Made by a program: the position numbers and the translations under genes. The notes below the pieces were generated by a model, which was not told where the DNA came from, did not search any database, and saw only the letters and a program-made list of their open reading frames with translations. From an uncultured virus (IMG/VR IMGVR_UViG_2703719318_000005) (lineage: Duplodnaviria; Heunggongvirae; Uroviricota; Caudoviricetes), in the IMG/VR virus record IMGVR_UViG_2703719318_000005: a stretch of DNA of 64,000 nt; one strand, given 5' to 3'. Positions 1 to 64,000 of this stretch are shown here, piece by piece; position 1 is the first letter of the stretch, and every line of letters begins with the position of its first letter.

Positions 1-579
1 ATGAATTGCAGTACAGTATATGTTTTTATAGGTAGCGCATTAGATAATAATATTATAAGAAAAAGCTTCAAAACGGATGGGATTTGTTTTGTGGATAAAG
101 ACTCTTTAACTGATGTTGAAGCTGATTATCAAACAAAAGTTAACTACATAAATTTAAACGATTCTCAATCAATAGAAAAAATATTTGAAGACATTGAGGG
201 CATAAAAAGTATAGTAGTATGTCCGAGTATTAACAATGAATTAAAATACGATAAATTGTTATTAGATGTGGATAGGGTACTTAGAAAACTAGTTATATTT
301 TCAAAGGGAATTTATCCAACTGCTATGAGAAATAAAGGAATTAAAGTATGGTTTTTAGATTCTAACGTAGCTAATAATGAAAATTATGTATTAACAAAAT
401 CTTTTAGTGCTGGAGTAAATGCTATTTCAAAAACCTTTGGTATGGAGTTGGCTAGAAAAAGTACAATAGTAAATTATATAAAATTAAATGATATTGATAA
501 TTTTGAGAAAATAAGTGATTTTATTGATTTGGTATTGGATAAATCAATATATTTAGATATGCAGAATTTAATTGTGTGA
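1..579 (+). CDS. Degenerate SDR/FabG-like protein
   Basis: SDR-like C-terminal half (YVLTKSFSAGVNAISKTFGMELA) but no intact TGxxxGxG motif; overlaps the next SDR gene. Confidence 0.55.
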   Translation: MNCSTVYVFIGSALDNNIIRKSFKTDGICFVDKDSLTDVEADYQTKVNYINLNDSQSIEKIFEDIEGIKSIVVCPSINNELKYDKLLLDVDRVLRKLVIFSKGIYPTAMRNKGIKVWFLDSNVANNENYVLTKSFSAGVNAISKTFGMELARKSTIVNYIKLNDIDNFEKISDFIDLVLDKSIYLDMQNLIV

Positions 580-1324
580 GATGAATGATATGGATAAAAA
601 AATTGCGTTAATAACAGGTGGGAGTGGAGGCATAGGGGCTAAAATATGCAGTAAATTAGCTGAAAATAAATACTATGTTTATATAAACTGTAGAAATGAA
701 GATAAGGCAAAGAAACTATTAGATGAGATAATAGCATTAGGAGGAGAAGGAGAGGTTTTGGTCTTTGATCTTAACTCTAAAGAATCACTGATAGAAGGAA
801 TAAATAAAATTAAATTTAGTAAAATTGATATTCTTGTAAATAACGCAGGGGTGTTAAGAGATAATATTATTTATAATATGAAGATGGAAGATTATGATTT
901 GGTTTTTAAAACCAACTTTATAGCATGTTTAGATATGTATGATGCTGTACTTAGTAGGCTAGAAAAATCAGAAGCTCCAGTGGTAATTAATATGTGTAGT
1001 ATATCAGGTGTTAGACCAAGAACTGGACAACTAGCCTATGGTGTATCAAAAGCAATGTTAATTGAATGGACAAAAAGTATGGCGAAATGCAATGAAAATA
1101 TAAGATATTATGCTGTATCACCAGGTCCTGTAGAAACAGAATTAATTAAAACCTCTAAGTGGTATAATGATAAAAAATCAATTAAAAGAATACCTTTAGG
1201 GAGATATGCTAAACCTGAGGAGATTGCGGATTTTATATCTTACATCATTGATAATCCTAAAATATTTAAAAGTGGAAGCAACATAATATTAGATGGGGGA
1301 TTTTTACAAACCACAAAGGAATAA
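572..1324 (+). CDS. SDR family oxidoreductase, 3-oxoacyl-ACP reductase-like
   Basis: TGGSGGIG, NNAG, YGVSK catalytic motif, VSPGPVET, IPLGR, DGG. Confidence 0.9.
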   Translation: MCEMNDMDKKIALITGGSGGIGAKICSKLAENKYYVYINCRNEDKAKKLLDEIIALGGEGEVLVFDLNSKESLIEGINKIKFSKIDILVNNAGVLRDNIIYNMKMEDYDLVFKTNFIACLDMYDAVLSRLEKSEAPVVINMCSISGVRPRTGQLAYGVSKAMLIEWTKSMAKCNENIRYYAVSPGPVETELIKTSKWYNDKKSIKRIPLGRYAKPEEIADFISYIIDNPKIFKSGSNIILDGGFLQTTKE

Positions 1325-1364: not shown

Positions 1365-1470
1365 GTCTAAAGAATTTTTATATAAGTTTTAGAGCTGTAA
1401 AATGATTAATAATTGTAAATGTTAAAAATATACATAGGTAATGGTAAAAGTATTAGGGAGGATGGCAATT

Positions 1471-1680
1471 TTGCCTAGATCGAAGAATGGATATAGTATA
1501 AATGTACACTATCCTAGTGATAAATCAGCTTTAGTTCAATTAAGAAAAAGAATGGGAAAAGCTTATGTTAAATTCATACAAGATTACATTAAGACCTTGC
1601 CTATAGACGATAATAAGAAGAATGAACTTTACTTTAATGTAATAGAAAAACTGAAAATAGATAAAAATGCAAGTTATTAA
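1471..1680 (+). CDS. Small protein (~69 aa), candidate recombination directionality factor
   Basis: GGGAGG RBS before TTG at 1471; lies directly upstream of the recombinase; function inferred from position only. Confidence 0.5.
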   Translation: MPRSKNGYSINVHYPSDKSALVQLRKRMGKAYVKFIQDYIKTLPIDDNKKNELYFNVIEKLKIDKNASY

Positions 1681-1733
1681 GGGTAATTTCTATTTGGTTT
1701 GTGAATTATATAATTATTAAGGTAGGGATCAGA

Positions 1734-3368
1734 ATGAAGGCAGCTATATATTCTCGTAAAAGCAAATATACTGGCAAGGGCGAAAGCATTGAAAATCAAA
1801 TTCAGTTATGCAAAGAATATGGATTGAAGTATTTAGAAATGTCCAAAGAGGATTTTATTGTATACGAAGATGAGGGCTTTTCAGGTGGAAATACTAAAAG
1901 ACCTCAATTTCAGAAAATGTTAAAGGATGCTAAAGAGAGAAAGTTTAATATATTGATATGCTATAGATTAGATAGAATAAGCAGAAATGTATCGGATTTT
2001 TCTAATTTGATCAATGATTTAAATAGATATAGTGTGGATTTTGTTTCTATCAGAGAACAGTTTGATACTACTACGCCAATGGGGAGAGCTATGATGTATA
2101 TAGCATCCGTTTTTTCTCAATTGGAGAGAGAAACTATTGCTGAAAGAATAAGAGATAATATGATAGAGCTTGCTAAGACCGGAAGATGGCTTGGGGGAAT
2201 TACACCTACTGGTTTTCAATCGGAAGCTATAATAAAGGTGGATTCAGGTGGAAAAGAAAGAAAAATGTTTAAATTATCTGTTGTTGAGGAAGAAATTAAT
2301 GTAGTTAAACTAATTTATAATAAATATATTGAGTTGAAATCAATAACTAAAGTTGAAAAATATTTAATAATTAATAAGATCAATACTAAAAACGGACTAG
2401 ATTTTCAAAGATATTCATTGAAGTTTTTACTTGGAAACCCTGTATACGCTGTAGCTGATAAAAATATGTATGAGTATTTAATTAGTAAAAATTATGAGGT
2501 TTATTCAGAATTAAAAGATTTTAATGGAATACATGGACTCATAGCCTACAATAAAACCTGTCAAAATAAAGAACAAAGTATAAATAGATTTAGAAATTCA
2601 AGCGAATGGATTATAGCTGTTGGAAAGCATCAGGGGGTTATTCCAAGTGATATTTGGATTGAGGCACAGAATTTATTAGAACAAAATAAATCAAAGGCCT
2701 ATAGGAAAGTTAAAAGTAATCAATCTATTTTATCTGGTGTTTTAAGGTGTGCATATTGTGGAAGTTATATGAGACCAAAGGCAGTGCAAAGAAAAAATTC
2801 TGATGGTGAACAGGTTTTTTATTATTTGTGTGAAATGAAAGAAAAAAGCAAAAAAACTCGCTGTAATGTTTCAAATATTAATGGAAATGTTTTAGATAAA
2901 TTAATAATTAACGAATTGAAAAAAATCATCAAAGAAAAATTCCCCTTATTTCAGGATATGAATTTTAAAAAAACATTAATAGAATGTAATTATATGGGCT
3001 CAGAAAATGAATTAATAGAAAAGAAAATATCTGAAATTGATTTATCTATTATGAATATAATGAGTTCAATTGAAAAAGGTCAGCCAGAAAGTGTTTTAGA
3101 AATAATGTATAAACGTATGGAGAAGCTTGACAAAGAAAAGAAGGATTTAAATAAAAGGTTGTCACAAGCAAATAGTGTAGGTAAAAATTCTAAGTCTAAC
3201 TCCATAAATATGGAATTTATTTATAAGAGCTTATGTAGTTTTAATGATAGTTCCTGGGAGCTTATGAATGTAGAGGATAAAAGAAACCTAATAAAGAGTG
3301 TGGTAGATAAAATTTTATGGGATGGTAAAAAAATTGATATGCTATTATTGGGAAGTGAAATATCCTGA
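1734..3368 (+). CDS. spoIVCA: Large serine recombinase, SpoIVCA-like
   Basis: AIYSRKS catalytic Ser motif, DEGFSGG, RLDRISR, recombinase domain, zinc ribbon (CAYCG...YYLC), coiled coil. Confidence 0.85.
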   Translation: MKAAIYSRKSKYTGKGESIENQIQLCKEYGLKYLEMSKEDFIVYEDEGFSGGNTKRPQFQKMLKDAKERKFNILICYRLDRISRNVSDFSNLINDLNRYSVDFVSIREQFDTTTPMGRAMMYIASVFSQLERETIAERIRDNMIELAKTGRWLGGITPTGFQSEAIIKVDSGGKERKMFKLSVVEEEINVVKLIYNKYIELKSITKVEKYLIINKINTKNGLDFQRYSLKFLLGNPVYAVADKNMYEYLISKNYEVYSELKDFNGIHGLIAYNKTCQNKEQSINRFRNSSEWIIAVGKHQGVIPSDIWIEAQNLLEQNKSKAYRKVKSNQSILSGVLRCAYCGSYMRPKAVQRKNSDGEQVFYYLCEMKEKSKKTRCNVSNINGNVLDKLIINELKKIIKEKFPLFQDMNFKKTLIECNYMGSENELIEKKISEIDLSIMNIMSSIEKGQPESVLEIMYKRMEKLDKEKKDLNKRLSQANSVGKNSKSNSINMEFIYKSLCSFNDSSWELMNVEDKRNLIKSVVDKILWDGKKIDMLLLGSEIS

Positions 3369-3394: not shown

Positions 3395-3493
3395 ATAGAA
3401 AATGAGATACTAATGCTTATAAGAAATAATAAAAAGAGTAAAAATGAGGTATACCTTCAAGATCCAATTGGTGTAGACAAGGAAGGTAATGAA
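3395..3493 (+). other. sigK: Internal fragment of sigK (middle piece of a split gene)
   Basis: Translates to IENEILMLIRNNKKSKNEVYLQDPIGVDKEGNE, matching the conserved SigK segment ARCIENEILM...DPIGxDKEGNEISL; flanked by non-sigK DNA and an in-frame TAA. Confidence 0.92.
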
Positions 3494-3520
3494 TAACATC
3501 TATGATGTTAGACATATACC
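3488..3520. other. Putative attL of the prophage
   Basis: sigK homology stops after AATGAA; followed by palindrome TAACATC-TAT-GATGTTA and the integrase stop codon. Confidence 0.6.
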
Positions 3521-5029
3521 TCAAAACCTTGTATATAGCTGTAAATCAAAGTCATCGTTACGTTGATTTTTTGATTTTATATACTTAGCTTCTATCAAAA
3601 TACTTTTCAACAGCTGATTTTTTTCAGTAATATCCTTTGAACTTTTATATTCTTTAATAGCATCACGTATTTTTGATAAATTTAAGTTTTTGCTCTTGTC
3701 TTCCTTCTTTAGCAATTCTTTTAATGAATTCATTTCAGTACTTACTTTATTAGATCTATCTGCCAAATTATTCGAACGTTCAACAAATGTATTGTTATCA
3801 TATATTCCTTGCTCAAGTAAATCAAACAATTTCATTTTTTGACTATTTAGTGTTGATAATTTCTTTTCTAAAACTGATATCTGAATCTTATATGTATCAA
3901 TTTTAGAATTATTTTTATTGATTTTTTCCATATTTGACTCATAGTTGTTTAGTAGTGTTTCTAAAGCATTAAGTAGTGCTTTTTCAACATAATCAAATCG
4001 GGCACTTTTATTGCCACATTTTTTCATGCATATTATATGTGGAAGTCTGTTACCGTATTTTCTTAAAACCATTTTACTTCCACATACACCACATGTTATT
4101 ATACCTGCAAGGGGATTGACAGCACCATTTTTTAGCTGATATGGTACATGATATTTATTTTTTAATATTTCCTTAGCCTGATTAAATATCTCATCACTAA
4201 TTATAGGTTTATGTTTACCATCTGCTACAATCCATTCTGATTTGTTCCTTGTCCTAGTGTCTTTTACTTTGTTAGGATTTTTAGATTTTTTAATTTCTTT
4301 TTTCCTCCATGTTACTTTTCCTATATAAACAGGGTTTTTCAATATAAAAAGTATACTGCTAGATTCGAATTCTCTGCAATTTTTTGTGCTATATCCAAGA
4401 GCATTTAGACGATTTGCTATTATTCCTGCACCATTTCCGTCGGTATACAATTTAAAAATTAATTTTACTATTTCAGCTTCTTTAGGGTTTGGTTTTAGAG
4501 TTCTATTTTTATTTATAAAAGTTATATCATAGCCAAATGGGGGGTTAGCTGATATATAATTTCCATCTTCTATGCTTCTTACTCTGCCACCTTGCATACG
4601 TCTGTTTATCATTTTCAGTTCTTTTCTACTCATAAATGCTTCAAATTCAGAATACTCTTCGTCAAAATCGTTATCCAAATCATAAGTTTTCATTGGTGTT
4701 ATTATTTTTGTATGGGAATTTTTAAAGGTTTCTAAAACAATTCCTTGGTCTTTCATATCTCCACGACCTAAACGCTGCATATCCATAACTAAAACACCAG
4801 TATACATTTTAGCTTCAACTTCTTTTAAAAGCTCAAGCATTTTAGGTCTGAAAAATAAGCTCTCACCACTTACTATTTCTTCTTTTATTTCTACTATATT
4901 TAGTTTCTTTTCCTTAGCAAACTTAAGCAAAGCTTTTCTGTGTTTTAATAATGTTTCACCTTCACCTAAAGTTTTTTCTAGTTCCTCATCGGCTCTTGAT
5001 TTTCTTAAATAAATGCAAATCTTATCCAT
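3521..5029 (-). CDS. Prophage large serine integrase
   Basis: IYLRKSR, MDMQRLGRG, PPFGY, zinc ribbon CGVCG, coiled coil. Confidence 0.92.
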   Translation of the reverse strand: MDKICIYLRKSRADEELEKTLGEGETLLKHRKALLKFAKEKKLNIVEIKEEIVSGESLFFRPKMLELLKEVEAKMYTGVLVMDMQRLGRGDMKDQGIVLETFKNSHTKIITPMKTYDLDNDFDEEYSEFEAFMSRKELKMINRRMQGGRVRSIEDGNYISANPPFGYDITFINKNRTLKPNPKEAEIVKLIFKLYTDGNGAGIIANRLNALGYSTKNCREFESSSILFILKNPVYIGKVTWRKKEIKKSKNPNKVKDTRTRNKSEWIVADGKHKPIISDEIFNQAKEILKNKYHVPYQLKNGAVNPLAGIITCGVCGSKMVLRKYGNRLPHIICMKKCGNKSARFDYVEKALLNALETLLNNYESNMEKINKNNSKIDTYKIQISVLEKKLSTLNSQKMKLFDLLEQGIYDNNTFVERSNNLADRSNKVSTEMNSLKELLKKEDKSKNLNLSKIRDAIKEYKSSKDITEKNQLLKSILIEAKYIKSKNQRNDDFDLQLYTRF

Positions 5030-5049
5030 TAGCAACACTTCCATTAAAA

Positions 5050-5253
5050 TTAATTGTTTTCTTTATATTCAATTATATCGCTTATATTACATTTTAAGTA
5101 TTCACACAATTTATCTATTATTTGAAGCGCAATAAAGTCACCATTATTTATTCTTGTCATTGTGCTTTTACTGATTACTTTACTGACTACTAAGTCTTTT
5201 TTCTCTAAATCTTTATCTATAAGCGTTTTAAAAAAAGGTTTATAACTTATCAT
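5050..5253 (-). CDS. Cro/C1-type HTH protein (67 aa)
   Basis: MISYKPF...IIDKLCEYLKCNISDIIEY pattern; directly upstream of the integrase. Confidence 0.8.
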   Translation of the reverse strand: MISYKPFFKTLIDKDLEKKDLVVSKVISKSTMTRINNGDFIALQIIDKLCEYLKCNISDIIEYKENN

Positions 5254-5340
5254 AAAAAAACTCCCTTCATATCACGATATTATTGTAATGCAAATTACAT
5301 TACAAGTCAATACAATAGGAATATAAATAAAGCAAAAGGA

Positions 5341-5370
5341 TTGACTTCTGAACCTTATATGTGATATTAT
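5341..5370 (+). promoter_or_regulatory. SigA-type promoter for the HTH-TPR gene
   Basis: TTGACT-N18-TATTAT with extended TG. Confidence 0.5.
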
Positions 5371-5587
5371 GAATTTATGGAAATTTATTAAATAAATAAT
5401 AATAAATTTAAATGGCTGTAATAATTATAATTTTTTATAAAAATTGTTAATAATAGAGAAACTCTGTAGGCATATGGTCTCGCAAACTTCTACCTACAGA
5501 GTTAAAAGGGAAGTCCTTCCCCCTGACAATAATAACACATACAGCAAAAAATCGGAAGACTTCTATTTATAGAATAGGAGGATTAAT

Positions 5588-6775
5588 ATGTGTAAATTAG
5601 AACCTTATCAAAGGTTAAAAAAGATAGTAGAAGAATTAGGTGTAAGCCAAACAGAATTATCTTGTAAATATCTAGGGAGAGCAACTATAAACAAAATTCT
5701 TAATGGAGAGAGACCCTTAGGAGCAGCTCAGGCATATAAGTTTATACAAAGATTTAAAGACTTTGGGTATGATACAGATATTGAATTAATATTAGGCGTG
5801 CCTGCAAAAACTATAAATGGTATAGTAACGAAATTTTTAAGCAATACAAAGAAATATTACTTAGAGTTTGATGAATTGATAGACAAGTTATATAAGGATA
5901 AGGCTATAGAAGTTATTTGGGAAGTTATACAAGAATTAGATGACCAAGATGTTTATAAAAATGCAAATACTATATTGAAATATTTAACAAAATTAATGCA
6001 ATATGATTTAGATGAAAATACATATCTAGAAGTTAATTTAGAGCTGATTAAAATTTATACAGCAACAGGAAACTATGAACGTGCAATTTCAGGATTTAAT
6101 TCAGTTAAAAATTTTAATACATTAGATAGGGAGAGTAGAGTTAAGTGTCTTTTGAATGTAGCTTTAGCATACTACAATCTTAGAGAATATAAATTATCAA
6201 TAGATATTGCATCCAGAGTCATGAGACTTAGAATTTTTGATAAATACTATTTTAAAGCAGCAATAATAAAAGCTAATGTGCTTTACACAAAAGGCAGTAT
6301 TATGGCGAGTATTAAAGAGTATGAGAAAATTTCAATAACGGCCAAGAAACATAATTTCTTGAATTATGTTTCAACAAGTGAAAGCAACATAGGGTATGTG
6401 TTTACAGAACAAAATAAATTAGACTTAGCAAAAATATATTTGGACCAGGCAATGAAAAATTTTGATACATTAGATAACTATTACAAACTAAATGTTTATG
6501 ATAATGTATTCTATTTGAAACTTAAAAATAATACAGCCGATTTTAGTTCATTTGAAAAAGTAATGACTTTAGCTTTCAATGTTAATGATAATTTCAGGAT
6601 TAAAAATAATATAAAACAATTTGTAAGCTATGCTATTAAGAATAAAAAAAACAAAGAATTTTTTGCAAAGATATTAGGGTTCCTGAATCCAAAAGGCTTA
6701 GAATTAGAATCAAGTTTAAAATTAAAGATAATGGAATATTTAGCAGGTAAAACATTTGAAAACATGATAAAATAG
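5588..6775 (+). CDS. HTH plus TPR-repeat regulator, RRNPP/AimR-like peptide receptor
   Basis: N-terminal XRE-like HTH (LGVSQTELS...TINKILNGER) followed by TPR-like repeats (LNVALAYYNLREY, SNIGYVFTEQNKLDLAKIYLDQAM); followed by a small signal-peptide ORF. Confidence 0.8.
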   Translation: MCKLEPYQRLKKIVEELGVSQTELSCKYLGRATINKILNGERPLGAAQAYKFIQRFKDFGYDTDIELILGVPAKTINGIVTKFLSNTKKYYLEFDELIDKLYKDKAIEVIWEVIQELDDQDVYKNANTILKYLTKLMQYDLDENTYLEVNLELIKIYTATGNYERAISGFNSVKNFNTLDRESRVKCLLNVALAYYNLREYKLSIDIASRVMRLRIFDKYYFKAAIIKANVLYTKGSIMASIKEYEKISITAKKHNFLNYVSTSESNIGYVFTEQNKLDLAKIYLDQAMKNFDTLDNYYKLNVYDNVFYLKLKNNTADFSSFEKVMTLAFNVNDNFRIKNNIKQFVSYAIKNKKNKEFFAKILGFLNPKGLELESSLKLKIMEYLAGKTFENMIK

Positions 6776-6838
6776 CACTATACAATTGTGAAATATCACA
6801 CTTTTGTGATATACTAATTTTGAGGGGAGGGAATTTAT

Positions 6839-6943
6839 ATGAAAAAAATATTAGCAAGTAAAACAGTAGGTACTTTAGTAGCTGTAGCATTAATATTTAT
6901 ACCTGTTATAAGCTTTGTAATAGGAAGCCCGGGAGTTTCATAA
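6839..6943 (+). CDS. 34-aa secreted signalling pro-peptide (AimP/Phr-like)
   Basis: GGGGAGG RBS; MKKILASKTVGTLVAVALIFIPVISFVIGSPGVS has a basic N-terminus, hydrophobic core and short polar tail. Confidence 0.8.
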   Translation: MKKILASKTVGTLVAVALIFIPVISFVIGSPGVS

Positions 6944-6958
6944 AATTTAATAATGTGC

Positions 6959-7025
6959 AAGTGACATATTCGACAAAATGTATGTCACTTTTTATATTGT
7001 TTTACAGTTAAAAAAATGCTATAAC
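6959..7025 (+). promoter_or_regulatory. Inverted repeat (operator and/or terminator) followed by a SigA promoter
   Basis: AAGTGACATA-N12-TATGTCACTT, then TTGTTT-N17-TATAAC with extended TG. Confidence 0.6.
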
Positions 7026-7052
7026 ATATATAATATACTTGGGAGGTTATAT

Positions 7053-7172
7053 ATGGAGGAACTGAAGAAAATTTTGATTCGAATTGAGAACATAGAAAAA
7101 CTAGCTGAACATATTAATATTGCTGTATACAATATAGAAAATAAAATACTTAAATCCAAAAAAGAACAATAA
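7053..7172 (+). CDS. 39-aa protein in an aimX-like position
   Basis: GGGAGG RBS; converges with the repressor gene. Confidence 0.6.
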   Translation: MEELKKILIRIENIEKLAEHINIAVYNIENKILKSKKEQ

Positions 7173-7174
7173 AT

Positions 7175-7552
7175 TTATTGCTCTTTTTTTATTTTCTCTT
7201 CTTCAATTATCTTATTTAATGTTTCTTTTATCGTATAGGTGATTAATTTTTGTAAATCACTGTCTATATTCTGAGTATTTGTAATTAATCCTTTTTGTAC
7301 TAATCGTTTAAGCAGTTCATCTACTACATATTCTTTTCTTTTTTCAATTTCAACATCTAATTTATCAACTCTTAATTCATCCAATGTCAAATTAAAATAA
7401 TTTGCTAAAGTTTGTAGGGTTTCATCAGAACCAGTTTTGTGACCTTCTTCTATTTTACTAATCATACTTACCGACAATCCAGTTTCATCAGCAAGTTGTT
7501 TTTGTGTTATACCCTTTGATTTTCTTAATTTCTTAAGCTTTTCACTTAGCAT
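7175..7552 (-). CDS. CI-like XRE repressor
   Basis: MLSEKLKKLRKSKGITQKQLADETGLSVSMISKIEEG HTH; AAGGAG RBS; divergent from the Cro-like gene. Confidence 0.85.
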   Translation of the reverse strand: MLSEKLKKLRKSKGITQKQLADETGLSVSMISKIEEGHKTGSDETLQTLANYFNLTLDELRVDKLDVEIEKRKEYVVDELLKRLVQKGLITNTQNIDSDLQKLITYTIKETLNKIIEEEKIKKEQ

Positions 7553-7584
7553 TTTATTTCTCCTTTTTTGTTTTTCTGTGTCTA

Positions 7585-7733
7585 TTTTGTCACAGTCTGT
7601 GACAAAAGTCAAGGAAAGCAGACTATTTTTAGGCAAAATGTGTGTAAATAAATAAATTGTACAAGCCAGATAAGCACCAAGAGGTGATAAATTATCACGA
7701 TATGTTTGAATATTATCACCAATCGAGTGATAA
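7585..7733. promoter_or_regulatory. Genetic switch operators
   Basis: Palindromes TTTTGTCACAG-T-CTGTGACAAAA (7585-7607), GTGATAA-A-TTATCAC (7684-7698), TTATCAC-N7-GTGATAA (7713-7733). Confidence 0.7.
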
Positions 7734-7757
7734 TTGTACCAGAGAGGAGGAAAGTAC

Positions 7758-8054
7758 ATGGAAGATAGACAACATATAACTACTTTTAAAATTCTAAGAC
7801 TTGCATCAGGAAAAACAGCCAAAAGCGTAGCATCAGCATTAAATCTTAAAGAATCCAGCTACCGAAGATACGAGTGCTCAGATAGATTACCATCTGTAAA
7901 CACATTACAAAGGTTAGCTACGACATACAAATGCTCATTAGAAGCAGTAACACACGCCTACAACTATCACAAAAGTGTGAGAGACATGAAAAGGAAGAGT
8001 AAATTAAGGAACAGATTAAAGAAAAAAAGCCAAATTAATAATTATGGTGCATAG
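7758..8054 (+). CDS. Cro-like XRE regulator
   Basis: HTH (LRLASGKTAKSVASALNLKESSYRRYE); AGGAGG RBS. Confidence 0.8.
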   Translation: MEDRQHITTFKILRLASGKTAKSVASALNLKESSYRRYECSDRLPSVNTLQRLATTYKCSLEAVTHAYNYHKSVRDMKRKSKLRNRLKKKSQINNYGA

Positions 8055-8095
8055 TATGAAAGTAAAGTGAATAAAATTTTAATGAGGTGGTGTAC

Positions 8096-8245
8096 ATGCC
8101 TAATGTAACAATTATAAGACCTAATATCACCCCAGAGCAAGAAAAGAAAGCACTTGAGTTTTTTTCAGCTGCTTTAGGTAGTTTAATTGAAAAAAAGTAT
8201 GGAATTGAAGTTAGAATTGAAACACATAGGAAAACATCAAAATGA
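8096..8245 (+). CDS. 49-aa hypothetical protein
   Basis: GAGGTGG RBS; MPNVTIIRPNITPEQEKKALE... Confidence 0.6.
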   Translation: MPNVTIIRPNITPEQEKKALEFFSAALGSLIEKKYGIEVRIETHRKTSK

Positions 8246-8507
8246 TTAAGTTTGAGATTAAAAAGTGATTAACTTTAAATAGGCTATTCAGCCTATTATA
8301 AAAAACTATTATGTAAATAAAAATAAACACTTATCTAATATATTCTATTAATTATCATTCAAGAATATGACAAAAACACTTCAATAAAATCTTAAGACAG
8401 CGCAAGTGGAACATAAAAGAGTGTCAGTACTCTACTGGTTACTTACTATTGTTACTGGTTACTGATCTATTGATACTGTAGGAATTTAAATTAGGAGGAA
8501 TTGAATA

Positions 8508-8732
8508 GTGGAGAATAATATTTCAAAACAAAAATTAGAATGGATGAGAAAAGTGGGAGTAAAGAAGTTTGAAGAACCACTGCAGTATTATTTAGGAGCT
8601 AACATATTTTATTCCGAGAAGTTTTTGGCTGAAACACCCCTTGAAGAGCTAGAAAAAAAGAGTAACCAAATACTAGCTGATAAAGGGGCGCCAATAATAA
8701 TTGAAAATGGCTCAAAACATTATATAGATTAA
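8508..8732 (+). CDS. Hypothetical phage protein
   Basis: AGGAGG RBS, GTG start. Confidence 0.6.
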   Translation: MENNISKQKLEWMRKVGVKKFEEPLQYYLGANIFYSEKFLAETPLEELEKKSNQILADKGAPIIIENGSKHYID

Positions 8733-9073
8733 ATTGAAATAATGCTCTTAAATTTGCTTAAATAATCAATAACTTCTTTTAAGCCATTTTTAAAACGGTT
8801 TTCCATATAAAGTATACCTTTATCGGAAAGGTAAGAATCACATACAACATTTTCAGCATAAGCACATATTAATAAGCTAGAATCTTTCAGCTCGCTACAT
8901 GCTGCATCAATATCACTGTATTGCATTTTTGTATTGATACATTCATAAATGTTGGCTGAACTACCAAAAGCTATAGCTATATCTTTTGAAATGCCGTTTT
9001 TACGTTTTTGACAGTATTGTTTATATAATAAGCAAATTAAAGCATCAGCATTTTTAGTAAGCTGTATATCCAT
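8729..9073 (-). CDS. Reverse-oriented accessory protein, possibly winged-helix
   Basis: AAGGGGA RBS before MDIQLTKNADALI. Confidence 0.65.
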   Translation of the reverse strand: MDIQLTKNADALICLLYKQYCQKRKNGISKDIAIAFGSSANIYECINTKMQYSDIDAACSELKDSSLLICAYAENVVCDSYLSDKGILYMENRFKNGLKEVIDYLSKFKSIISI

Positions 9074-9140
9074 AAAATATACATCCCCTTTCATCAAAAT
9101 TTTACCATAAGGGGACAAGCAATACAAAGGAGTTGATAAA

Positions 9141-9926
9141 TTGAATTTAACACCAATAGAGTTTAAGAAACAAAGAGTTTTAAGTACGGAATTATTAGCA
9201 AAAGTATATGAAACAGATATGAACAACATTCAAGCTAACTTTTCAAGAAATAAAGATCACTTTAAAGAAGGAATACATTACTATTTACTTCAAGGCGAGG
9301 AATTAAAGCAGTTTAAGAACCAACCTACTATTAGTCAGCTGGTTTCTAAACATGTAAGCCAACTATACTTGTGGACAGAGCGGGGAGCAAATCGACATTG
9401 TAAAATATTAGATACAGATAAAGCGTGGGAACAATTTGACAACTTAGAAGAAACTTATTTTAGAGTTAAAAAAGCAGAACCACAATGCATAGAGGACTTA
9501 ATTATTATGCAAGCACAAAGCCTTAAAGATATGCGATTACAGCTACAAGAAACTAAGGAGCAGACAACAGCAGTAAAACAAGAAGTACAAGCTATGCGTG
9601 ATGTAATTACTATAAAACCAAGTGAAGAGTGGAGAAAGCAGACCAATGTACTTATAGCAAAAATATGTATGAGAGTAAAAGACTATAAAAAACCTAAGGA
9701 GGAAATTTATAAAGCACTTCAAGAGCGTGCAGGATGCGATTTAAAGATTAGGCTTAAGAATATGAGGGCGAGGTTACTACTTAATGGATCTACTAAAAGT
9801 AAGGTGGACAAGCTTAATTATTTAGATGTAATCACAGAAGATAAAAAGCTTATTGAAATATATGTAGCCATAGTTAAAGATATTGCCATTAAAAACAGTA
9901 TAAAGGTTAAGGAGGAAATTCAGTAA
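9141..9926 (+). CDS. ORF6N-domain antirepressor-like protein
   Basis: QRVLSTELLAKVY, NFSRNKDHF, LYLWTERGANRHCKILDTDKAW. Confidence 0.85.
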   Translation: MNLTPIEFKKQRVLSTELLAKVYETDMNNIQANFSRNKDHFKEGIHYYLLQGEELKQFKNQPTISQLVSKHVSQLYLWTERGANRHCKILDTDKAWEQFDNLEETYFRVKKAEPQCIEDLIIMQAQSLKDMRLQLQETKEQTTAVKQEVQAMRDVITIKPSEEWRKQTNVLIAKICMRVKDYKKPKEEIYKALQERAGCDLKIRLKNMRARLLLNGSTKSKVDKLNYLDVITEDKKLIEIYVAIVKDIAIKNSIKVKEEIQ

Positions 9927-10234
9927 TGATAAATATAACTTCATTAGAAGAAAGAGCAAATGACTTATTCAAACAATACGGACTTTATGGATCGGCAACT
10001 CAAATGTTTATTACTAGATTTTTTTACACTCATGACTTGGCAGATTTAACAATTTTGAGAGTGGCTAACTTACCAGATAAATTAAGAAAAGACTTAGCAA
10101 GTATATTAAGGGAGTATTTTAAAAACAAGCAAACTGCCCCTGAGGTGGAAGCTCAAGAACAGCTTGAAAAGTTTGTGCCAGAAGATAGTAATGGAACAAA
10201 TTATGAAAGAGGCCAAAAACACACAACTAGTTAA
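9926..10234 (+). CDS. Hypothetical phage protein
   Basis: Translationally coupled ORF. Confidence 0.55.
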   Translation: MINITSLEERANDLFKQYGLYGSATQMFITRFFYTHDLADLTILRVANLPDKLRKDLASILREYFKNKQTAPEVEAQEQLEKFVPEDSNGTNYERGQKHTTS

Positions 10235-10505
10235 AAATATTTTCTTTAATAAATTTCCATTGGTCTTTATTTAACCATCCTTGGTAATTAGTTGTTAATA
10301 CTTCCGTTACTATCATTGTGTCGTTATCATCTAGGTACGAATTAATATTGTTTGAAATTTGGGTGGCAGTAAGATTAGATTTAATTAAATATGAAGACTT
10401 CCAATAAGTACACCATGAAGAAGAAGAATCTTTTATAGCTTTAATGACATCTTCATATTTTTGACCCGGACTATCAAGATCATAAGTTATCATATATGCA
10501 GCCAT
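10227..10505 (-). CDS. Small Cas2/VapD-like ferredoxin-fold protein (stand-alone)
   Basis: YMITYDL N-terminal motif, SSYLI, DDNDTMIV; GAGGTGA RBS. Confidence 0.6.
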   Translation of the reverse strand: MAAYMITYDLDSPGQKYEDVIKAIKDSSSSWCTYWKSSYLIKSNLTATQISNNINSYLDDNDTMIVTEVLTTNYQGWLNKDQWKFIKENIFN

Positions 10506-10531
10506 ATATATCACCTCACTTTCAGATGATA

Positions 10532-10560
10532 TATTCTACAAAAACACTGTAAAAACCTTT
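10532..10560 (-). promoter_or_regulatory. SigH-like promoter
   Basis: Minus strand AAAGGTTTTT...TGTAGAATA. Confidence 0.5.
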
Positions 10561-10586
10561 AAAAAATATAAAAAGGAGGAAATAAC

Positions 10587-11051
10587 ATGAGAGATATTAA
10601 GAAATACACAAATAAAATGACTAAAGGGGAGTTCATAAAGAAAGCAGACAAAGAGACATGGTGTCCTAATGCGTATGGATTAAAATGTTTTAGCGATATA
10701 GATTTAGACAAATGCGTCCTTGACTTTATAACATGTCATGAATGCTTTGAGATAGCACTTCAAAATATTAAATTCAAGGAGGAAGAGAAAATGAATAACG
10801 CAACAGTAAAAACTATAATGACACTTGGTGCAATGCTAGGAAGAGACTATGATTATGAATTCATAAAACATAGCAATGAGAGCAAAGTCAGCATTTATAA
10901 GAAGGGTAAGTTGATTAAAACTGATTGTGTTGATGCTGTAGAGATAACAAACGAAGATGAATTTAAAATTTGGGTTTGGAATTGGTTATATAGAACTAAG
11001 TATCAGAGTAAAGAAGCAGCTGCAACAATATCTACTAACCGCATGATTTAG
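10587..11051 (+). CDS. Hypothetical phage protein
   Basis: AGGAGG RBS. Confidence 0.6.
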   Translation: MRDIKKYTNKMTKGEFIKKADKETWCPNAYGLKCFSDIDLDKCVLDFITCHECFEIALQNIKFKEEEKMNNATVKTIMTLGAMLGRDYDYEFIKHSNESKVSIYKKGKLIKTDCVDAVEITNEDEFKIWVWNWLYRTKYQSKEAAATISTNRMI

Positions 11052-11063
11052 GAGGTAGAAACT

Positions 11064-11204
11064 ATGGAACTAAAACCAAAACAGAGGGAATTTTTGAGAC
11101 ACCTGGGACTAGCAGTTAAAAATTTCGAGTTAGTTTCTAGTAGCTGCAGCAATTGGAGTTTTCGTAACAGAAAAACTGGTGCAAAACTAGATTATAGATT
11201 TTAA
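11064..11204 (+). CDS. 46-aa hypothetical protein
   Basis: AGGAGG RBS; MELKPKQREFLRHLGL... Confidence 0.55.
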   Translation: MELKPKQREFLRHLGLAVKNFELVSSSCSNWSFRNRKTGAKLDYRF

Positions 11205-11220
11205 GTTAGGGGTGGAGCGT

Positions 11221-11388
11221 TTGAAGCATGGAAAAAGACCAACATTGAAGCAGAGAGAAAGAATTTCAAAGTTGAAGTATAAGGGAAGAAATCTTAATCC
11301 TGAAAACTGGCTAGTAGTTAAGGACACATCAGAAGAATTTGTATTAGTAAATAAAAATTCAGGACATCAAGAAAAATATTCCAAATAA
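11221..11388 (+). CDS. 55-aa conserved phage protein
   Basis: KHGKRPT...LNPENWLVVKD pattern common in Firmicutes phages. Confidence 0.6.
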   Translation: MKHGKRPTLKQRERISKLKYKGRNLNPENWLVVKDTSEEFVLVNKNSGHQEKYSK

Positions 11389-11407
11389 AAAGGGAGGATT
11401 ATTTATT

Positions 11408-11647
11408 ATGAAATCGACAGGAGTTGTAAGACAATTAGATCCACTAGGAAGAATAGTTTTGCCAATTGAAATAAGAAGAACATTTGATTTAAAAGAAAAG
11501 GATGCTTTAGAAATATATGTAGATGGTGAGAACATTGTACTTAAGAAATATAATCCAGCATGTATTTTCTGTGGAGAAGCAAGCGAGGTTGTTAACTATA
11601 AAGGTAAGAAGATTTGCAAGAAATGTTTGGAAGAATTAAGAAGGTGA
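11408..11647 (+). CDS. abrB: AbrB/SpoVT-family transition-state regulator
   Basis: MKSTGVVRQLDPLGRIVLPIEIRR...LKKYNPACIFCG...ICKKC. Confidence 0.9.
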   Translation: MKSTGVVRQLDPLGRIVLPIEIRRTFDLKEKDALEIYVDGENIVLKKYNPACIFCGEASEVVNYKGKKICKKCLEELRR

Positions 11648-57376: not shown

Positions 57377-57619
57377 TAATAAGTTTTTAAATATAAATTA
57401 CTTAAAAATAGTTATTTTATATAAAAACAAATCATAAATAAAACAATGTAAATAAATTGAATTAAAGTAAAAATAAATACTATAGTGTAAATTTTGTTGA
57501 ATCTTACAAGTACATGCTTTATAATAAAGTGAAAGGTAATCGAAAAAGATTACTTTATGCGATATAGAATTATATATAATATCTAAGAACTTATGATTTG
57601 GATGGGGGAAACTTATTTT

Positions 57620-58699
57620 ATGGAGTTGAAGGAATATAAAACTATATTAATGGAGACAATTACTAATGAATATCCTTTGTATTTTCAAAAAACTTTGTTG
57701 AAAAAATTTCAAGATAAGGGTTTGATTTTTAGGGATGGAAGAAAAACTAATGTTGATAATCTTTTAGATGTTACATGTTATAGTAAAGAAAGAGATCAAT
57801 TAAAGCTTGCAATAGAGAGCATGGATAATTGTATTAAAGAATGTGAAGAATTTGAGTATGAAAAAGGATATAGATATTGTGCTATTTTTAAATTTAGGCA
57901 ATATAATGAAAATATTGTTAATAAATTAGTAAATGAAAAACAAATTTTTAAGTATAATGAGAATAATATTTTTGATGATAATTTGTATGAATATCCAGCG
58001 TTTCCAACATATAAAGAAAACGGAGATTATGCATTTTTAAAGTTTGGTTTTATGCTGAATAATAAAGAAGAAACTAATAGCTTTATGAAATATCCTGTTT
58101 TAGTGGTAATAAATAAAAAATTAAAAATAATAGAAATAAGATTAGATACTGTATCTTTTAAATATAAGAACAAGGAAAATTTTTATGAAGATAAAATTGG
58201 TAGAGTAAAATCATGGATTAGAAGGTATTTAGATTTATCAATAGAAGATATAGATTTTCAAGCTGTAACTAAATACATGAGAAGTAATAAAGCTGATGAA
58301 GTTACTATAACTGCCCTTAAAATGGTTAGAGATGGTATGGTGGCAAGTTTAGATGCGTGTTCTAATGAAGAAATGACTATACCAATTTTGGGTGAATTAA
58401 AAGAATTAATATTAAAATGTAATACTATGTTTGTGGTTAACGATGATACTATCAAAATAAAAGAATTGCTAAACAATTTTATAAAAAAGATAGAAGAAAC
58501 TTCTGACTTACCATCGGTAAAAATATTTTGGCATATAAAAAGAATAAAACTATTAGTTATGCATTCATATAAAGAAAAATCATACAGCTTATTTAAATAT
58601 TCTGATGAATTGGAAGATAAGGAGAGAATGAATTATGTTACAAACTACCTTGTTGAATGTGAAGAAGAGCTTAGAAAACAATTCCAAATTGAACAATAA
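57620..58699 (+). CDS. Hypothetical protein, gene 1 of candidate defence operon
   Basis: AT-rich ORF with GGGGGA RBS, overlaps gene 2. Confidence 0.7.
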   Translation: MELKEYKTILMETITNEYPLYFQKTLLKKFQDKGLIFRDGRKTNVDNLLDVTCYSKERDQLKLAIESMDNCIKECEEFEYEKGYRYCAIFKFRQYNENIVNKLVNEKQIFKYNENNIFDDNLYEYPAFPTYKENGDYAFLKFGFMLNNKEETNSFMKYPVLVVINKKLKIIEIRLDTVSFKYKNKENFYEDKIGRVKSWIRRYLDLSIEDIDFQAVTKYMRSNKADEVTITALKMVRDGMVASLDACSNEEMTIPILGELKELILKCNTMFVVNDDTIKIKELLNNFIKKIEETSDLPSVKIFWHIKRIKLLVMHSYKEKSYSLFKYSDELEDKERMNYVTNYLVECEEELRKQFQIEQ

Positions 58700-59003
58700 A
58701 CAGATAGAGTTATTAGTAGACAACATGGAGTTATGGGATTTAAATCATATAGTATATCCAAGCCAAATTAAAAGCATGTTATTCATTAAATATAAGAGTG
58801 TGTATGAAGTTTTAGATGTAATAAGAGATTTAGGAATTTTAGAATATAATTATCAAATTTATTGCAGTAAATGTGAACGATTTTTAGACAAAAAAATATT
58901 AAGAAGCTTAAATGAATTTCCAGAAGTATTATACTGTGATGAAAATCATAAATTGAAATCTTTAGAAGATACTATTTTAATATATAGGGTGATTAAAGAA
59001 TGA
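58635..59003 (+). CDS. Small protein with Cys/His motif, gene 2 of operon
   Basis: CSKC...CDENH; ATGA overlap with gene 3. Confidence 0.65.
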   Translation: MLQTTLLNVKKSLENNSKLNNKQIELLVDNMELWDLNHIVYPSQIKSMLFIKYKSVYEVLDVIRDLGILEYNYQIYCSKCERFLDKKILRSLNEFPEVLYCDENHKLKSLEDTILIYRVIKE

Positions 59004-59785
59004 GTGACTTAGGAGGATTAAGTCTGTTAGAAAAGATAAATATGGATATAGAAAAAGCTGATTTCAATAGTGATAAAGAGCGTGAAGATATCAAACTCAA
59101 AGTATTAAATAAATATACTCGATGGAGTTGCAATGATTATTTACAGTATGAAAGATTACTTGATAAATTGAAGGAAGAGAAAGATAAGAAACACTGTAGT
59201 CAGGTTGAAATTGGCAAGGCATTAGAAAATATAGTGACATTTATATTTGAAAAAAGTTATTTTTATAAGGTATATCCTAATAAAAGGACAAGTACTCATG
59301 AAATAGATCAGTTTGTAGTGCTAAGTGATAAGGGAGAACAAGCAATTTATGATTATCACTTTTCACGTAAATTATTAATATCAGAGCAAGACTATTTTTT
59401 ATGTGAGTGTAAAAATTATAAAACCAAAGTTCAAGCTACATGGGTTGGAAAGTTCTATACTTTGCTAAAAGTATCAGGAGATTGTACTGTAGGTATAATT
59501 TTTTCGTGTAATGGACTAACAGGAAAAGAAAATAATTGGTATGATGGACATGGATTGACTAAAACAATTTATAGAATAAGCAATAGTACCCAACACACAT
59601 ATATTCTTGATTTCAATCTAAATGACTTTAAGCTATTATTAGACAATAAAAATACAATATTTAGTATAATACTTAATAAGAAAAGGGCGTTAGTAGCTAA
59701 TGTAAAATCAGTAAATTTGATAGATAGTGATTACCTAAACAATAATGAAATTGAGAAAATATATAAAGAAATATCTCAAGGATAG
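59000..59785 (+). CDS. PD-(D/E)xK restriction-endonuclease-like protein
   Basis: GKALE...HEIDQFV...CECKNY...GIIFS, Mrr-like arrangement. Confidence 0.75.
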   Translation: MSDLGGLSLLEKINMDIEKADFNSDKEREDIKLKVLNKYTRWSCNDYLQYERLLDKLKEEKDKKHCSQVEIGKALENIVTFIFEKSYFYKVYPNKRTSTHEIDQFVVLSDKGEQAIYDYHFSRKLLISEQDYFLCECKNYKTKVQATWVGKFYTLLKVSGDCTVGIIFSCNGLTGKENNWYDGHGLTKTIYRISNSTQHTYILDFNLNDFKLLLDNKNTIFSIILNKKRALVANVKSVNLIDSDYLNNNEIEKIYKEISQG

Positions 59786-59820
59786 AATAATGTTATACTA
59801 GTAATATGATTAATTATTAA

Positions 59821-62666: not shown

Positions 62667-63749
62667 TTAAATATCCTCATGAGATTTTTTACGTGATATT
62701 TTTCTATAGTCCTTATATGAAGTAAGTAGTTCTTTTATCTCATATATCACTAAAAGTGAAGGTACTTCCATCTCAGTTAGAAATTCATCTAAAGCTAATT
62801 TTTCTCCATCTGCATCATCCTCAAGTTTCAAGTTATAAAGTATTCCGTACCCTTGTCTTATACGCTTGTTTGATATAGCTAACTCTATAGTTTTAAATAC
62901 TTCATAATTTGCTATATCTGTATCTTTGAAAGTATACTTCAAGACTTCTACAATTCCAGAGCTGTCCATTTCCCTTATATCCGCAATAAAACAATCTTCT
63001 ATTTTAAAATTACTATAGTTTTTCTCATTTACTCGTAGTTCTTTAAAGTACATAGTCCATAGTTTCATAATCTGTATATCAATTAAACTATAAAAATTAT
63101 AAGATTTTCTTTTATCACTGTACTCTCCGACAATATTTTTTTGAAATAAACTAGGATCGTATTCATGACTGAAAAATAAGCAATGAAAATGTGGATGATA
63201 AGTATTACTTTCTTCGTTATAGGTAATTTCAAGTACTTTTAAAGCACCTTCAAACCCCATTAATCTATCCTTAAAACCTTTTGTGGTTTTGCCTTCTAAA
63301 TCGTATGAATACGCACCGAATAATTTTTTAAAAGATTTATTCATTTTTTCTATTGTTCTTTTAAGTTCTATTCCTTGTACATTAGGAATTGTAAGTGTAA
63401 CCAAGTAAGGGTAATATCCATCTAGCAGTAGATTATTAAGCGGTACTTTAAGATTATGAATGGCACAGGCTAAATTAAATTTGCGGCAATTGGGACAAAA
63501 ACGGTTATTCATGCACCTGTTAACTTTTTGTAAGTCTAATAACTTATTATTTTTATATAGATCCCAAAGCCATATATCCATACAGTTTTTTATACGTTCA
63601 CTTTTCTTCTTTAAAGTTTCGGAATATGCAAAATGCTGTTCGCTTCTCATTTCTTCACTCATTCTTATATACCATGCTGCATATTTACTATTATAGTCAA
63701 TTCTTTTTTGCTCCATTTTTTCAAGAGTTTCGTTCTCAAAATCCATCAA
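62667..63749 (-). CDS. rep: Rolling-circle replication initiator (Rep_1 / pC194 family)
   Basis: C..RFCPNC, LVTLTIPN (motif I), LEITYN..YHPHFH (HUH), EVLKYTFKD (motif III). Confidence 0.9.
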   Translation of the reverse strand: MMDFENETLEKMEQKRIDYNSKYAAWYIRMSEEMRSEQHFAYSETLKKKSERIKNCMDIWLWDLYKNNKLLDLQKVNRCMNNRFCPNCRKFNLACAIHNLKVPLNNLLLDGYYPYLVTLTIPNVQGIELKRTIEKMNKSFKKLFGAYSYDLEGKTTKGFKDRLMGFEGALKVLEITYNEESNTYHPHFHCLFFSHEYDPSLFQKNIVGEYSDKRKSYNFYSLIDIQIMKLWTMYFKELRVNEKNYSNFKIEDCFIADIREMDSSGIVEVLKYTFKDTDIANYEVFKTIELAISNKRIRQGYGILYNLKLEDDADGEKLALDEFLTEMEVPSLLVIYEIKELLTSYKDYRKISRKKSHEDI

Positions 63750-63818
63750 CCATGCTCCCTTAAGCTTATTAAGTCTGCAATCCCTTTATTTAAGCCAAAA
63801 TTACACTTGTTTGTATAA

Positions 63819-63912
63819 GTATCGAGTATATATAAAAGACTACTAGGCATTAGCATCGAAACCGTTCTACTATTTATGCTGACGCACGAAATTTTCGATG
63901 CTAATGCCTAGT
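63819..63912 (-). other. Putative double-strand origin and large hairpin
   Basis: Minus strand GTCTTTTATATATACTCGATAC resembles the pC194-type nick site CTTGATA; 20-bp perfect inverted repeat at 63842-63861/63893-63912. Confidence 0.6.
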
Positions 63913-64000
63913 GTTGTAATAAAGCACGTCCTTAACGAAATTGTAATTTGCCGAAAAATAGGGGCTTTCAAACTTAATTGGCTTACTGGTAGTCCCATCC

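Follow-up and report, generated by a model that had tools for sequence, protein, structure and literature searches.

We report that a Clostridium prophage interrupting the sporulation gene sigK carries a five-gene receptor-peptide module, which is laid out like the extended arbitrium loci of Bacillus phages. The stretch analysed (the window; 64,000 nucleotides of the uncultured virus IMGVR_UViG_2703719318_000005) constitutes most of a 66.8 kb provirus record, and it has genes for terminase, portal, head, tail and lysin, those for head, tail and lysis looking intact. Taken as a whole, our data suggest, with a probability of about 0.6, that an arbitrium-like switch is combined here with a separate, peptide-independent excision during sporulation that restores sigK. 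Arbitrium-type switches have been characterised in Bacilli and, if this reading is correct, the clostridial module represents a concrete meeting point of sporulation and phage signalling.

The extended arbitrium locus in Bacillus is ordered aimR-aimP-aimX-aimC-aimL, with AimX described as an antirepressor of AimC (Kabel et al., 10.1101/2025.11.23.689978). The features of the module in the window, compared below among six receptor loci, are as follows.

5588-6775, plus strand: HTH-TPR (RRNPP-type) receptor of 395 amino acids (weak Pfam HTH_3/TPR matches; within the 250-460 amino acid range of RRNPP receptors)
6839-6943, plus strand: signal-peptide-like propeptide of 34 amino acids with a basic N-end, a hydrophobic core and the C-end GSPGVS (similar open reading frame, ORF, behind the receptor in 6/6 loci)
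6959-6990, plus strand: terminator-like hairpin with arms GTGAC-N18-GTCAC (z -3.35; hairpin in 5/6 loci, absent in G184)
6969-6975, plus strand: TTCGACA, a perfect match to the Spo0A core (TGTCGAA on the minus strand), in 6/6 receptor loci versus 2/36 outgroup HTH-TPR loci, the latter counted for any TGNCGAA within 450 nucleotides
6997-7025, plus strand: predicted sigma-A promoter of the small ORF, TTGTTT-17-TATAAC (same register in the aligned loci)
7053-7172, plus strand: AimX-like ORF of 39 amino acids, likely an antirepressor (ORF of 36-41 amino acids convergent on the repressor in 5/6 loci)
7175-7552, minus strand: short HTH repressor (125 amino acids) without an autocleavage domain, AimC-like (family match)
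7758-8054, plus strand: cro-like gene (AimL-like) at the head of the early lytic operon (family match and layout)

The structural model of the receptor consists of an HTH domain and a TPR superhelix (predicted local distance difference test score, pLDDT, 90); Rap and PlcR are among its generic TPR fold matches, and NprR/Rap were matched by profile. An adjoining, co-directional propeptide ORF was predicted in 6/6 receptor loci, and one homologue is PrediSi-positive. The complete layout (receptor, peptide, small ORF, convergent repressor, cro) is present in five of the six loci, i.e. the window, G040, G105, G184 and L139, while G188, a remnant beside a truncated comM-type gene, retains no more than receptor and peptide. 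Receptors of the same clade were found in 4/383 scored genomes and on one more viral contig (L139); 18 further genomes were not scored for the receptor, and an order-level search gave the same 4/383. Scanning the genome contigs with the receptor alignment gave no match, scans with receptor subgroups added one locus, L139, and a receptor search of 50,697 phage records was negative. The Clostridium acetobutylicum regulators QsrA-H behave as a low-scoring outgroup (<154 bits versus >350 bits). Receptor and peptide are likely to constitute the sensor of an arbitrium-like lysis-lysogeny switch.

A kinship between the small ORF and the repressor based on their common KKEQ end was rejected, since KKEQ derives from the shared terminator palindrome. 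Between repressor and cro we also note inverted repeats, TTTTGTCAC-N5-GTGACAAAA and TATCAC-N-GTGATA (window 7585-7609 and 7684-7733), which are likely repressor/Cro operators. The propeptide of L139 (7264-7434) has a tandem DPGTLPPL repeat and is carried by what is likely a plasmid-like phage with partition and Rep genes.

The module includes an invariant DNA element, the box. Specifically, TTCGACAA is positioned 13-28 nucleotides past the peptide stop in all six loci, and no other 7-8-mer is shared by all five lineages, although the receptors of the six loci are 21-34% identical, save for the window-G040 pair at 76%. In the shuffle control any common 7-mer appeared in 4/5000 cases and a GC-containing one in 0/5000. 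The conservation was first noted on five loci, and L139, which was fetched later, has the box as predicted. The background is one occurrence per 19.5 kb, with two in the window. Scanning DNA for patterns of the box and its surroundings revealed no further receptor locus (7/8 viral matches are unrelated coding DNA; the genome version of the pattern is narrow and matched only G105). The perfect TGTCGAA core is situated in the promoter region at approximately -60 from the predicted transcript start of the small ORF and 20 nucleotides before its predicted -35. Spo0A has TGTCGAA as its core motif, and this extends to a clostridial Spo0A (PMC3485338). Phage phi106 has a LexA site at a comparable position (10.1101/2025.11.23.689978), and no LexA-type box was found in the peptide-to-small-ORF interval. 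Since the hairpin arms vary by lineage and G184 has no hairpin, TTCGACA behaves as a DNA site; moreover, the recognition helices of the receptors differ between lineages (and are two residues shorter in the group of L139), which favours a host protein as the binder. On these grounds TTCGACA at approximately -60 of the small-ORF promoter is most likely a Spo0A site.

It is possible, but doubtful, that TTCGACAA instead serves the receptor itself as an operator half-site, or is a promoter element, and conveys no host sporulation input. The box lies where AimR-type receptors act, ACAA-N20-TTG(T/C) forms a weak inverted repeat in 5/6 loci, and in the window TCGACA-17-TATATT is scored as a sigma-70 promoter; however, the TTCG part has no symmetric partner, the box is invariant over receptors with such divergent sequences and different recognition helices, and the alternative -10 is out of register in the other loci. 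We consider it very improbable that the box serves as the -10 of an antisense sigma-H promoter reading across the peptide gene: the minus strand reads TGTCGAAT in 5/6 loci, which is the -10 of C. difficile sigma-H promoters, e.g. those of spo0A and lplA (PMC7438776), but the -35 AGGA at 17-19 nucleotides is complete in 0/6 loci, the best being three of four bases in one locus. With Spo0A as the preferred binder, the host sporulation state would probably feed into phage induction, i.e. from host to phage, which is the reverse of the direction in the original prediction that phage-density signalling may gate sporulation of the host. As to the regulatory sign of the box, activation at entry to stationary phase is slightly favoured, because the spacing from the box to the -35 is fixed. 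In G184, the arm to the left of the Spo0A-box match changes together with the TGTG(A/C)C half-site of the likely repressor/Cro operators.

The insertion site and the integrase are described by the following features.

1441-1680, plus strand: ORF of 79 amino acids in a CD1234-like position, likely the left sigK element's directionality factor (L020, L022 and L024 have homologues next to the same recombinase; function inferred)
1701-3368, plus strand: large serine recombinase of a second sigK-interrupting element (Pfam Resolvase/Recombinase/Zn ribbon)
3395-3493, plus strand: middle piece of sigK between two insertion sites (comparison with related split sigK loci)
3486-3493, plus strand: core GTAATGAA of the left attachment site (attL), of the PhiS63/skinCt type (the sigK piece ends here; 8/10 bases match the PhiS63 core GTAATGAAAT)
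3521-5029, minus strand: prophage serine integrase of the PhiS63/phiCT family (60% to the PhiS63 and 65% to the phiCT453A integrase)
5050-5253, minus strand: HTH_26 small regulator upstream of the integrase (Pfam; 92% to a gene beside a different integrase in L003)

The sigK piece has 33 codons, reads IENEILMLIRNNKKSKNEVYLQDPIGVDKEGNE and then stops; it shows 85-94% identity to the sigK 5' halves adjoining related integrases, and such a piece is present at 17 of the 21 genome loci whose integrase is of this family. Integrase family, site and orientation agree with the sigK elements PhiS63/skinCt, the integrase being convergent with the sigK piece. The sigK 3' half and the right attachment site (attR) are absent from the 66.8 kb contig, the 3' half being present in relatives, so that the insertion site is placed by attL and by the relatives. 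The second recombinase, which has 52-66% identity to recombinases in the same arrangement at L020, L022 and L024, stops just left of the sigK piece; sigK is therefore split twice here, as it is in these three loci. In G007 sigK is in three pieces, and a split sigK is also visible in G004 and G006. The original statement that the phage sits in sigK agrees with the attL core, the sigK piece and the integrase family, with the correction that the piece is the middle of a doubly split gene.

For the excision of the prophage two further features are of importance.

8096-8245, plus strand: candidate recombination directionality factor of the sigK integrase, 49 amino acids, first gene behind cro (homologue at 37/60 integrase loci)
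8049-8077, plus strand: sigma-E-like promoter match GCATAGT-14-AATAAAAT directly before the 49-amino acid ORF (scored against the sigma-E consensus)

When the window is compared with L003, the integrase and the post-cro ORF are the two genes exchanged, while the genes between them are 47-92% identical. The best ESM Atlas match of the 49-amino acid ORF, with a score of 0.79, is unnamed. Because the ORF tracks the integrase family and is swapped together with the integrase, it is likely to be the excision factor of the sigK integrase. The sigma-E-like pattern ATA-N16-18-ATANNNT precedes the post-cro ORF in 8/22 non-redundant regions including the window (shuffle mean 2.0, maximum 6), and GTACAA/GGACAA, a SpoIIID-like motif chosen from the same data, is present in 11/22 regions, in nine of these at -39 to -47; GTACA is also found upstream of three of the five host sigK genes. 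SPbeta carries arbitrium (10.1101/2025.11.23.689978); its excision at sporulation persists in a version trimmed to sprA and sprB, the latter being read from a separate mother-cell promoter (PMC4191935). Both in SPbeta and in skinCd (PMC5025042) the small directionality factor and not the recombinase decides the timing of excision. Given the candidate factor's own sigma-E-like promoter and these precedents, two excision routes are likely, one repressor-controlled for lysis and one from a mother-cell promoter for sporulation.

Gene layout, distribution and motif conservation can be read from the loci, and we infer each binding and regulatory step of the following model. Without peptide, the receptor would turn on the 39-amino acid ORF past the hairpin, and the resulting protein would disable the repressor; the cro operon, holding the candidate excision factor and the AbrB-like gene, would then be read, leading to excision and lysis. 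Lysogens nearby would block this lytic route through their peptide. In the mother cell, the sigma-E-like promoter would drive the excision factor by itself, and attB would be restored without lytic genes, as in SPbeta. Spo0A at TTCGACA would provide a second input, the host sporulation state, where phi106 has its LexA site. Tentatively, the antirepressor promoter of this clostridial arbitrium-like clade could even be an AND gate for phage density and phosphorylated Spo0A, such that a sporulating lysogen lyses if few lysogens are near and completes the spore, with silent mother-cell excision from sigK, if peptide is high; phage density would then set the spore yield via lysis and not via sigK repair.

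A different model was put forward originally, in which the peptide/receptor state controls sporulation-time excision and spore yield follows phage density. Its structural premise was borne out, as the integrase and the HTH_26 gene are divergent from the receptor (plus strand) across 334 bp. However, G105 and G184 likewise have a small divergent regulator and an integrase upstream of the receptor, and a layout that is met again next to tyrosine integrases is nothing out of the ordinary for a prophage. The tie between lysis excision and phage-density signalling is likely right, because the cro operon, which stands below the repressor, includes the candidate excision factor. For gating of sporulation-time excision the distribution of the module points the other way: the recombinase beside it is the sigK serine enzyme in the window, a serine recombinase 22% identical to it in G040 and tyrosine integrases in G105 and G184 (in G184 behind a tRNA array), G188 is a comM remnant, and in L139 no integrase adjoins the module, the phage having partition and Rep genes and, at a greater distance, a resolvase. 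Conversely, receptor, peptide and HTH_26 gene were found at 0/60 sigK-type integrase loci by tblastn (the 60 include duplicates; 46/60 have >4 kb upstream), where two receptor profiles matched short HTH proteins only. The 334-bp divergent region lacks the GTGAC/GTCAC arms, and both the separate sigma-E-like promoter and the SPbeta precedent (PMC4191935) argue for an excision independent of peptide. In favour of peptide control are the degenerate SpoIIID-like box before the candidate excision factor in the window, an 11-mer, TATCACGATAT, common to the cro promoter and the HTH_26/integrase leader (approximately 0.2 expected by a rough estimate; absent in G040), the fact that the G040 phage too sits in a gene split by several SpoIVCA-like elements, and a report of an AimR-independent rise in spore counts caused by a Bacillus arbitrium peptide (10.64898/2026.08.23.746533). 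On balance we regard peptide gating of sporulation-time excision as unlikely.

The predicted AbrB-like regulator is real.

11408-11647, plus strand: AbrB-like regulator in the early lytic operon (family match; 3.6 kb into the cro operon)

That this protein is a density-controlled sporulation hijacker, following the signature of Bernard et al., appears quite unlikely. The same receptor-repressor-operon-abrB signature has been published as putative (PMC10075063), and the phage AbrB is 72-81% identical to chromosomal and phage AbrBs; on the other hand, its gene lies deep in the cro operon, AbrB-like genes are present in 66 phage records, none of which has a receptor match, and at 3/60 integrase loci, and near the module they are found in the window, G040 and G188 but not nearby in G105 and G184. 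[quoted passage not shown]

Several points weigh against a switch of the arbitrium kind combined with separate sporulation excision. The top fold matches listed for the receptor are generic TPR and do not include AimR, which is also missing from the profile matches listed; for the 39-amino acid ORF, neither a family match nor profile similarity to the C-end of the repressor was found. The readable receptor loci number six, from five lineages, with approximately 30 further receptors lacking readable DNA. The identity of the excision factor rests on co-occurrence, with 23/60 loci having no detected homologue. The SpoIIID-like box of the window is degenerate (GTATGAA), and the Bacillus SpoIIID consensus is matched in only 3/22 regions, within the shuffle range. 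Finally, the box may be the receptor's own site.

Among other observations, a receptor-leader hairpin is located at 5459-5505 of the window, with a loop inverted between the window and G040 and no Rfam match at gathering level. Upstream of the left recombinase (window 1-1324) are two short-chain-dehydrogenase-like genes, probably cargo of the left element, and a three-gene moron behind the lysis module (57593-59788), the last gene of which resembles a restriction-type nuclease, is a possible defence cassette. The far phage end has a Rep/FtsK-like/lipoprotein mini-element (window 62667-64000, continuing to contig C1 66494), as has the phage end of G040. Past the window, at the contig end, two small ORFs (C1 66511-66609 and 66684-66821) are 56-64% like the G040 post-cro ORF and may be part of a third recombinase element or left over from a swap of integrase modules. 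In G040 the prophage is held by a gene for an FAD-dependent oxidoreductase that is seemingly split by three SpoIVCA-like recombinase elements (L083 12206-12487 and 15825-16391; L082 13878-14255), possibly an unrecognised rearranged mother-cell gene. Finally, the early operon of the G184 module phage encodes a SpoIIID homologue (phrog_11726; L086 13217-13477) and a sigma-factor-like gene.

Phages in sigK, two-route excision, the extended arbitrium locus and the sporulation-hijack hypothesis are already in print, the C. acetobutylicum receptor-peptide pair as a supplement row. A clostridial five-gene module, or a Spo0A site in one, was not found in a literature search that most subscription papers and preprint supplements lay beyond. 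C. acetobutylicum ATCC 824, which is industrial and genetically tractable, has the 76% identical receptor in a predicted intact prophage and spo0A mutants exist, and the idea is thus testable there.

RRNPP_Detector lists this receptor, AAK79911.1, together with its peptide as a relaxed prophage quorum-sensing system (PMC10075063; 10.1101/2021.07.15.452460), and the sporulation-hijack idea was formulated there for viral systems with abrB/spo0E (PMC10075063); the antirepressor, the Spo0A box and the link to sigK are not part of the account given in these two sources. QsrA-H of C. acetobutylicum (PMC7376267) share the order of an HTH-TPR receptor followed by a propeptide, but their peptides end in L-P-W motifs; in that work CA_C1949 is among 11 regulators and a peptide was not recognised for it. 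Compared to the phi106/Wbeta extended arbitrium loci, as described in the preprint, we find the same gene order and orientation, a short repressor without cleavage domain, a terminator after the peptide gene, an ORF convergent on the repressor (29-80 amino acids there) and a host-regulator site near aimX. Unlike these, the module is clostridial, the Spo0A-core match replaces the LexA site, and the receptor is likened to AimR by layout and not as a homologue; the main text of that paper (10.1101/2025.11.23.689978) contains neither "Clostridi" nor "sporulation". The elements PhiS63/skinCt (PMC3442830) have an integrase of the same family (60-65%), the same site and the same orientation, but are described there without a receptor-peptide module, and in the window sigK is split twice. 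For the skinCd pair CD1231/CD1234 (PMC5025042), too, it is a small factor controlled by sigma-E and SpoIIID, and not the recombinase, that sets the time of excision, although skinCd is defective and without a lytic route. SPbeta with sprA/sprB (PMC4191935) is comparable in that an active prophage endowed with a peptide system occupies a mother-cell gene; it differs in target gene and repression system, and its excision factor is read both from the lytic operon and from its own sporulation promoter, as established by experiment in SPbeta and predicted here.

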